A DNA stretch of 21,248 nucleotides, from the IMG/VR virus record IMGVR_UViG_2563366853_000009, positions 1 through 21,248 of that record, one strand, 5' to 3'. Position 1 is the first letter of the stretch, and the number at the start of each line of letters is the position of its first letter. Positions 13,242 to 13,805 of the stretch are shown here, one piece after another. Under the pieces are notes generated by a model that worked only from the letters and a program-made list of their open reading frames with translations, did no database searches and was not told the origin of the DNA. The translations under genes and the position numbers were made by a program. This stretch comes from a virus (taxonomy: Duplodnaviria > Heunggongvirae > Uroviricota > Caudoviricetes).

Positions 13242-13327
13242 CCCCCCCTTCACAAATTTTAAAGCCTTACATTTCAATGTATTGGCTTTGTTTTGCATTA
13301 AATATTGAGATTTCTCATCAAAAATAC

Positions 13328-13361
13328 TTGACCAATTACCATGAGAAAACTAAATTAACAT
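13328..13361 (+). promoter_or_regulatory. Candidate sigma70 promoter (pL-like) for the post-repressor operon
   Basis: TTGACC-17 nt-TAAATT; followed by perfect palindrome ACACCGCACGGTGT (13370-13383). Confidence 0.4.
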
Positions 13362-13426
13362 CTATCAAGACACCGCACGGTGTTCTCAGCAAACAGTTCC
13401 GCCACCCGGCGTTAAGGGGAAAAAAG

Positions 13427-13645
13427 ATGGTTGGTGAAGATCTGGTTGTTATTAACGGTCAATTGTGCAGCAAAGATGTGGCAGCCATGCTTATTAGCAA
13501 GGTTCTTCCAACTGTGCTGGAGGTCATTGCAGAAAAAGTAAAGGCTGGTCGTCCAGACAAGGAAGTTGAAGAGGCGGCAAAAACAGTTGTTCATGCCGCT
13601 ACAGAAGCAATTATTTTGAAGAGCCTAGTTTCGCCCAAGCCTTAA
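13427..13645 (+). CDS. Hypothetical small acidic protein (72 aa)
   Basis: ATG at 13427 with AAGGGGA RBS; first gene after candidate promoter. Confidence 0.45.
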   Translation: MVGEDLVVINGQLCSKDVAAMLISKVLPTVLEVIAEKVKAGRPDKEVEEAAKTVVHAATEAIILKSLVSPKP

Positions 13646-13805
13646 GTGAATCGGCGCTTTTTTTAGCATCACGTTCATTGAGTAATGACAAAAACTCATT
13701 CTCAGCATTCTCGATTTCCGAGAAAAATTCTTGATGAGTTGTTTCTCGCTGCGATCTGATGCTGAAAGCTAAAGCAAGTAGCCAGGCTTTGTCTTTATTA
13801 TCCAT
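13611..13805 (-). CDS. Hypothetical small protein (64 aa), convergent and 3'-overlapping with 13427..13645
   Basis: Track ORF only; no strong independent signal. Confidence 0.3.
   Translation of the reverse strand: MDNKDKAWLLALAFSIRSQRETTHQEFFSEIENAENEFLSLLNERDAKKSADSLKAWAKLGSSK

Follow-up and report, generated by a model that had tools for sequence, protein, structure and literature searches.

Predicted early-left promoter, conserved leader, and convergent orphan gene pair downstream of a DicA-type repressor in a Rac/Qin-like prophage

Overview of the locus

The region described here lies directly downstream of a DicA-type repressor gene in the virus record IMGVR_UViG_2563366853_000009 (Caudoviricetes), whose 21,248 nucleotides (nt; positions 1 to 21,248) were analyzed in full and are referred to as the window. 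It contains a promoter, a short leader with two conserved elements, and two small convergent open reading frames (ORFs), termed ORF72 and ORF64 after their lengths in amino acids (aa) (Table 1). We propose, with moderate confidence, that a Rac/Qin-like early-left operon starts in this region and that a two-gene cassette, occupying a variable slot, comes next. The architectural layer of this reading is well supported. An earlier note on the same DNA had assigned the promoter, a palindrome, and ORF72 to a lysogeny-side module in a position equivalent to that of rexAB.

Judged by its gene content and order, the window belongs to the Rac/Qin-like lambdoid prophages of Escherichia coli. Its order is dicC-like cro gene, DicA repressor gene, the region under study, DicF-like RNA, kil, ydaE, racC, and recE, with dicA, the promoter, ORF72, and everything from the DicF-like RNA to recE on the plus strand. 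The corresponding order is dicC, dicA, ydfA, ydfB, ydfC, dicF, and dicB in K-12 Qin and racR, ydaG, ydaF, reverse-oriented sieB, kilS, kilR, ydaE, racC, and recE in K-12 Rac. A matching order was also present in phage Rac-SA53, in HannyBb, and in several E. coli prophages.

Table 1. Coordinates of the genes and sequence elements at the locus (window positions)
Feature	Position	Strand	Remarks
cII/YdaT-like gene	12120-12545	-	Context
P22-Cro/DicC-like gene	12544-12765	-	Context
Three operator-like sites	12770-12832		TTGAG-N4-CTCAA type; equivalent of the right operator (OR); between the cro/dicC-like gene and dicA
DicA-type repressor gene	12834-13241	+	135 aa; NCBIfam PRK09706 "transcriptional repressor DicA," 238 bits, full length; Pfam HTH_3
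Terminator-like hairpin, then GUUUUGC	13260-13297	+	Directly 3' of the dicA stop; -12 kcal/mol, z = -3.6
Operator-like site	13305-13318		TTGAGATTTCTCAT; 5' of the -35 hexamer; differs from the OR palindrome at 1 position
Predicted early-left promoter	13328-13356	+	TTGACC (13328-13333), 17-nt spacer, TAAATT (13351-13356); equivalent of lambda PL and Qin dicBp
Operator-like site	13341-13354		ATGAGAAAACTAAA; over the spacer and -10 hexamer
6+6 inverted repeat, predicted hairpin	13370-13383	+	ACACCG-CA-CGGTGT; about 7 nt from the predicted early-left 5' end
24-nt leader box	13396-13419	+	GTTCCGCCACCCGGCGTTAAGGGG; ORF72 Shine-Dalgarno sequence and small CGCC/GGCG hairpin; left slot junction
ORF72	13427-13645	+	72 aa; first early-left gene; orphan (phrog_23495); Shine-Dalgarno AAGGGG
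ORF64	13611-13805	-	64 aa; sieB slot; orphan (phrog_22868); convergent with ORF72
ORF64 promoter-like element and 5' untranslated region	13806-13878	-	TTTACC, 16 nt, TGgTATACT (13867 to 13840); GGAGTTCTCACACAACCAG; Shine-Dalgarno sequence
DicF-like small RNA with terminator-like stem	14078-14128	+	Rfam DicF (RF00039), 34.1 bits, E = 2.5e-5; below the gathering score of 48
STnc100/KilS-like kil leader	14130-14342		After the DicF-like RNA; Rfam 33 bits, below the threshold of 47
kil	14335-14556	+	KilR-type division inhibitor; phrog_294, 1.4e-35; called kil in identical loci

The predicted early-left promoter and its putative operators

The sigma70-type promoter claimed in the earlier note, with TTGACC and TAAATT hexamers 17 nt apart, is present downstream of the repressor gene and reads away from the immunity region toward the kil/recombination operon. 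Its match to the consensus was no better than chance (3 promoter-like sites in 2.1 kb, compared with 3.3 expected from shuffled sequences). The promoter and leader were aligned among the window, K-12 Qin, HannyBb, and one Klebsiella phage. The promoter aligned base for base with the K-12 Qin promoter upstream of ydfA, and the alignment with Qin included the -35 region (ACTTGAC), the leader, the element ACACCGCACGGTGT, and the box beginning GTTCCGC. The Qin promoter, dicBp, is a lambda-PL-like promoter under DicA repression, and deletion of dicA resulted in a 22-fold increase (PMC10448788); repression by the cognate repressor in vivo was shown for K-12 dicBp only (PMC10448788).

Putative operators were found on both sides of dicA. 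The three OR-equivalent sites begin at 12770 (no mismatches), 12794, and 12819. The first is a perfect palindrome, TTGAGTTTCCTCAA, and aligns with the K-12 Oc operator TTGTTAGTCATAACTAACAA, which is experimentally bound by DicA (PMC3441716). The site covering the -10 hexamer of the promoter aligns with K-12 GTTAGTCATGGCTAAT, which in turn resembles K-12 Oc. Sites with no more than one mismatch were located at 12770 and 13305 only, and five of the eight sites with up to two mismatches fell in the dicC-dicA gap or around the promoter. Operator sequences differ among the window, K-12 Qin, and a Klebsiella phage (L006), and in each case the promoter sites match the OR of the same phage. Likewise, a GGTTGTATTAT motif is common to the OR region and the PL-like promoter of a Klebsiella michiganensis locus (L010).

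The terminator-like hairpin downstream of dicA was missed by a simple terminator scan. Only 1 of 200 shuffled sequences folded into an equally stable structure, and its stem is kept in the Klebsiella phage through compensatory changes. As this hairpin and the GUUUUGC that follows it lie directly after the dicA stop, the repressor transcript should end there, before it reaches the promoter.

The homology to dicBp, the operator-like sites of the phage's own specificity, and the terminator-like hairpin after dicA together identify the promoter, at the level of sequence, as a repressor-controlled early-left promoter (PL type, dicBp-like) and not a lysogenic one. Because it is flanked by operator-like sites of the phage's own DicA specificity, it should be off in the lysogen and fire upon derepression.

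Conserved elements of the leader

The earlier note called the inverted repeat in the leader a perfect palindrome, but the two central bases (CA) are changed in the reverse complement, and the element is a 6+6 repeat with a 2-nt center. We estimate that about five repeats with 6-nt arms would be expected in 21 kb for any given spacing, and it is conservation alone that makes this one noteworthy. The repeat lies in the dicBp leader, and K-12 Qin and HannyBb carry the identical sequence. In relatives, a stem is kept at the same place with loops of 2 to 6 nt and compensatory changes: ATCACTG-CA-CAGTGAT in K. michiganensis, CACC-ACAAC-GGTG in Raoultella, CACC-AATCAA-GGTG in locus L015, ATCAC-GGCTCA-GTGAT in Cronobacter phiES15, and ACAGC-ACGGC-GCTGT in Rac-SA53, compared with ACACCG-CA-CGGTGT in the window. 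A role as repressor operator was considered and rejected, the repeat being identical across phages with different operators and its loop ranging from 2 to 6 nt. Retention of the stem alongside a loop of changing length is more in keeping with an RNA hairpin than with a binding site for a dimeric protein. The hairpin most likely acts at the RNA level, in stabilizing the 5' end of the early-left mRNA or in its processing, and not as a protein operator. On inspection it showed no similarity to boxA or boxB, and Rfam searches at permissive thresholds returned nothing in the leader or the cassette.

The second element, the 24-nt box, precedes ydfA, ydaG, rac11, and ORF72 in E. coli, Salmonella, Klebsiella, Raoultella, and Cronobacter, and it may have a nut-like or translational role. 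Its consensus, GTTCCGCYACCC(C)GGCGWTAAGGG, is nearly invariant and ends the leader in Qin, Rac, Rac-SA53, and the Salmonella, Klebsiella, Raoultella, and Cronobacter phages. The CGCC/GGCG hairpin within it varies among C-G, U-G, and U-A pairs, and the genes behind the box differ.

ORF72 and ORF64 as a convergent gene pair

ORF72 is co-oriented with the repressor gene, as previously noted, and occupies the position of ydfA in Qin and of ydaG/ydaF in Rac. Its description as a 72-aa acidic protein was correct in length but overstated its acidity (isoelectric point of 5.73, 10 aspartate and glutamate residues versus 9 lysine and arginine residues, net charge of -1). Homologues of approximately 68% identity occur in Klebsiella, Raoultella, and Salmonella. 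Compared with the Klebsiella homologue, the exact length is kept, the ratio of nonsynonymous to synonymous substitution rates (dN/dS) is 0.13, and differences are distributed 16/9/35 over the three codon positions. Structure prediction with AlphaFold2 (AF2), an analysis suggested in the earlier note, yielded a beta-hairpin and a helical hairpin for ORF72 (predicted local distance difference test score [pLDDT], 80.6). A lambda N-like antiterminator was considered as a candidate identity and rejected, as only 9 of the 72 residues are lysine or arginine, there is no arginine-rich N terminus, and the model is folded.

ORF64 converges on ORF72 and overlaps its 3' end by 35 nt, confirming the previously reported arrangement. 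The Klebsiella homologue is 47% identical and likewise 64 aa long, its differences being distributed 20/14/35 over the three codon positions, and 44 clusters of ORF64 homologues share conserved motifs (the Klebsiella copy having been added to the profile). The AF2 model consists of two soluble helices (pLDDT, 76.6), and the grand average of hydropathicity is -0.73. Since exact lengths are kept and divergence falls mostly at third codon positions, both ORFs are, on comparative evidence, real genes.

As stated in the earlier note, neither protein could be recognized: Pfam, NCBIfam, PADLOC, and the Protein Data Bank (PDB) gave no significant match, including in PDB profile searches with both ORFs, and the only families returned were two PHROGs of unknown function. 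No homology to RexA/RexB or other known defense proteins was detected with Pfam, NCBIfam, or PADLOC. Fold searches were uninformative, and a literature search with the RefSeq accessions of both proteins retrieved no papers.

Every locus with an ORF72 homologue that was examined also carried a convergent ORF64 homologue, with overlaps of 29 to 35 nt. These loci were from E. coli, Salmonella, K. michiganensis, Raoultella, Citrobacter, a metagenomic contig, and phage ST405-OXA48phi1.2. An exhaustive search of 1.8 billion representatives with the ORF64 profile produced nine matches, all small orphan proteins except for one spurious repeat protein. A remote ORF64 relative of 59 aa, identified through this search, is likewise convergent and overlapping with a 66-aa ORF, which shows weak similarity to ORF72 (hhalign P = 0.001; 10 bits). 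That the two genes are so consistently paired suggests that ORF72 may work together with ORF64 or oppose it. Pairing is not obligatory, as ORF64 homologues also exist without ORF72 and ORF64 can thus stand alone.

A 379-bp cassette comprising ORF72 and ORF64 was found at an identity of at least 99% in 29 of 5426 complete E. coli genomes, always on the chromosome and in single copy. In the three of these 29 genomes whose context was read, it was joined to a different repressor, WP_000410105.1, and the combination of cassette and dicA-type immunity region seen in the window occurred in no complete E. coli genome. Overall, the cassette was found with at least three repressor or immunity types. 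As it is joined to different repressors, it moves as a unit between immunity types.

The reverse promoter-like element and the variable slot

The cassette is bounded on its right by an element of approximately 50 nt upstream of ORF64 (13818-13878), which has an extended -10 sequence and is conserved in all ORF64 loci. In total, four unrelated minus-strand ORFs have this element in front of them. Elsewhere, it precedes rac10 of Rac-SA53, a 95-aa ORF that lacks annotation in Cronobacter phiES15 (L021, 1499-1786), and, in Klebsiella phages, a 76-aa zinc-ribbon ORF (L023, 1562-1792). In these Klebsiella phages, the annotation calls an overlapping plus-strand ORF and not the zinc-ribbon ORF. The element is not present in Qin, whose slot genes all lie on the plus strand. 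It resembles a portable promoter that would serve a reverse-oriented accessory gene.

The window departs from Qin-type relatives between the 24-nt box and this element. Convergent pairs occupying the slot include ydaF/sieB, rac11/rac10, and ORF72/ORF64, and profile comparisons of ORF72 and ORF64 with ydfA, ydfB, ydfC, ydaF, ydaG, sieB, rac10, and rac11 revealed no relationship. In both its slot and its orientation (on the reverse strand, after the first early-left genes and ahead of the kil leader), ORF64 corresponds to sieB of K-12 Rac. ORF64 was nevertheless rejected as a SieB homologue: it has no Pfam SieB match and is a soluble protein of 64 aa, whereas SieB proteins are membrane proteins of about 160 to 190 aa and Rac SieB scores 109 bits.

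A terminator scan identified no terminator-like site between ORF72 and ORF64. A hairpin of the form GCGGCA...UGCCGC (13575-13600, minus strand; z = -2.7) occurs just past the ORF64 stop, within the ORF72 coding sequence; as it has no U-tract, it is a questionable candidate for an ORF64 terminator.

Downstream genes and other RNA elements

The position and terminator of the DicF-like RNA are homologous to the Qin dicF region, and alignment showed its 5' part to be diverged. Going by the position of this RNA, the early-left operon runs on as far as kil.

Several further RNA families scored above the Rfam gathering threshold in the window. These were the RalA antitoxin RNA (18901-19081, minus strand), sok (6805-6979, minus strand), and isrK with the C4 antisense RNA and its a1/b1 targets (4425-4623, minus strand). 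SraC/RyeA with SdsR/RyeB (20643-20787), which are host small RNA families, were also detected near the 3' end of the window and might mark the prophage boundary.

Proposed mechanism and alternative explanations

Under the proposed reading, in which an early-left operon starts here and an accessory cassette follows, DicA would shut off the early-left promoter in the lysogen, and ORF64 would be made from its own promoter as an accessory protein with a role in exclusion or host modulation. Upon derepression, a strong early-left transcript would begin with the short conserved hairpin and the 24-nt box, encode ORF72, and then run antisense through ORF64 to the DicF-like RNA, kil, ydaE, racC, and recE. 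Firing of PL might thus damp ORF64 through transcriptional interference and through a sense-antisense duplex of the 3' ends. ORF72 may then replace or counteract ORF64, in the manner of a defense gene with cognate self-immunity. Expression of ORF64 in the lysogen is plausible; a functional link between the two proteins and any role in defense are speculative and rather unlikely. The suggestion in the earlier note of a lysogen-expressed accessory gene finds partial support in the reverse orientation of ORF64, its conserved extended -10 element, and its sieB slot, while exclusion and expression in the lysogen are predictions.

Several observations weigh against this reading. The -35 sequence of the ORF64 promoter is weak, and a consensus scan did not place the promoter above chance. 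ORF64 is predicted to be soluble and helical, in contrast to the membrane protein SieB, and neither ORF has a homology or fold match pointing to a role in defense. A subgroup of ORF64 proteins of 56 aa with a diverged C terminus (L014) occurs without ORF72, and the overlap between the two genes could by itself hold them together. Finally, leader sequences did not fold better than their shuffled counterparts (z = 0.2 to 0.7).

The pair could instead be unlinked early accessory cargo, held together by the 3' overlap only, with ORF64 not specific to the lysogen; this explanation is possible but doubtful. In its favor, unrelated orphans (ydfABC, ydaGF/sieB, rac11/rac10, and others) occupy this hypervariable slot, ORF64 homologues do occur alone, and both genes lack functional annotation anywhere. 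However, the pair persists from 99% down to approximately 30 to 45% identity, including the pair of remote homologues, ORF64 retains a dedicated promoter element in common with other reverse-strand occupants, and the cassette travels as one unit with at least three repressor or immunity types.

Going further than the proposed architecture, ORF64 could be a lysogen-expressed exclusion or abortive-infection protein in the sieB slot and ORF72 its self-immunity factor, made from PL upon induction or infection, with convergent overlapping transcription as the switch between the two states. This would be an undescribed two-component prophage system, and we consider it rather unlikely in this specific form.

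The view taken in the earlier note, which placed the promoter, the palindrome, and ORF72 (along with ORF64) in an exclusion or defense module expressed by the lysogen and located in the rexAB position, has become quite improbable. ORF72 does share the orientation of dicA and lies directly downstream of it, and repressor-proximal regions of lambdoid phages carry defense genes such as rexAB and BstA (PMC8585504). In addition, dicBp is described as firing spontaneously in a subpopulation of cells (PMC10448788). However, the promoter is a homologue of dicBp/PL with cognate operator-like sites, and a terminator-like hairpin separates it from dicA. Genes of the rexAB type lie between the repressor and PL and are cotranscribed with the repressor; ORF72 lies downstream of PL, like ydfA and ydaG, and is therefore the first early-left gene and not the rexAB equivalent. 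In K. michiganensis L010, five other genes fill the repressor-to-PL interval, which is the true rexAB-equivalent interval, and the ORF72/ORF64 pair is still found behind PL. PADLOC likewise gave no match for the proposed module. The five genes of L010 (780-2900) encode proteins of 79, 204, and 140 aa on the plus strand and, on the minus strand, a 58-aa protein and a 69-aa DUF2767 protein; none of them matched PADLOC.

It is very unlikely that the reverse unit works chiefly through an antisense RNA directed at the early-left transcript, comparable to oop or P22 sas, with a secondary or incidental 64-codon frame. The conserved promoter does point into the PL operon, the ORF64 transcript would be fully complementary to the PL transcript, and antisense control at P22 sieB provides a precedent (PMC12197685). 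Against this, exactly 64 codons are kept at 47% identity with the codon-position bias given above (20/14/35), the 44 homologue clusters share conserved motifs, and ORF64 has a Shine-Dalgarno sequence; RNA and protein roles are also mutually compatible. Least credible is a toxin-antitoxin-like addiction pair, which would fit two small, tightly linked prophage genes near Rac genes annotated as toxins (YdaS/YdaT Pfam names), but the layout is convergent and not operonic, the promoters are separate and oppositely regulated, and neither a toxin-antitoxin family match nor a toxin-like fold was found.

Comparison with known systems

The promoter and leader represent already known biology (dicBp/PL), and ORF72 and ORF64 are uncharacterized members of a variable accessory slot. 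Two points of wider relevance emerge. First, a positional misreading is corrected, in that the first gene after the repressor in Rac/Qin-type prophages can belong to the repressed early-left operon. Second, a portable slot is defined, bounded by the leader box and the reverse promoter element and filled by differing convergent gene pairs. As SieB, a known exclusion protein, is among the occupants, ORF64 and the other reverse-strand genes of the slot are reasonable though unproven candidates for small defense or host-modulating proteins. Were ORF64 and ORF72 indeed an exclusion and self-immunity pair, they would constitute a new small-protein system; otherwise, the locus would be an example of routine lambdoid mosaicism.

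The closest relative is the dicBp/dicBF region of Qin, which shares the position after dicA, a DicA-family repressor, an alignable -35 sequence, leader, and box, an identical inverted repeat, and a DicF-like RNA followed by a division inhibitor. The two differ in their operators (TTGAG-N4-CTCAA in the window versus TTAGT-N5-ACTAA-like in K-12), in their first genes (ORF72 and reverse-oriented ORF64 versus ydfA-ydfB-ydfC), and in the division inhibitor (kil versus dicB), and the DicF-like RNA of the window remains below the Rfam gathering score. K-12 Rac shares the order from kil to recE, a small plus-strand gene that converges on and overlaps a reverse gene before the kil leader, and the 24-nt leader box. 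However, ORF64 is a soluble helical protein of 64 aa, in contrast to the 162-aa SieB (Pfam SieB), ORF72 is unrelated to YdaF/DUF1391 and YdaG, and the Rac leader is long and lacks the inverted repeat.

More distant parallels are found among characterized exclusion systems. The SieB-Esc-sas system of P22 and lambda, which combines a prophage-expressed early-left accessory gene, a phage antidote, and an antisense RNA (PMC12197685), serves as a conceptual model only, as there is no similarity in sequence or fold and Esc is an in-frame product of sieB and not of a convergent gene. BstA/aba and RexAB are also encoded near the immunity region and share the idea of prophage defense with self-immunity (PMC8585504). 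Neither ORF72 nor ORF64 is homologous to these genes, which are located in the repressor-to-PL interval and transcribed with the repressor, whereas ORF72 and ORF64 lie beyond PL.

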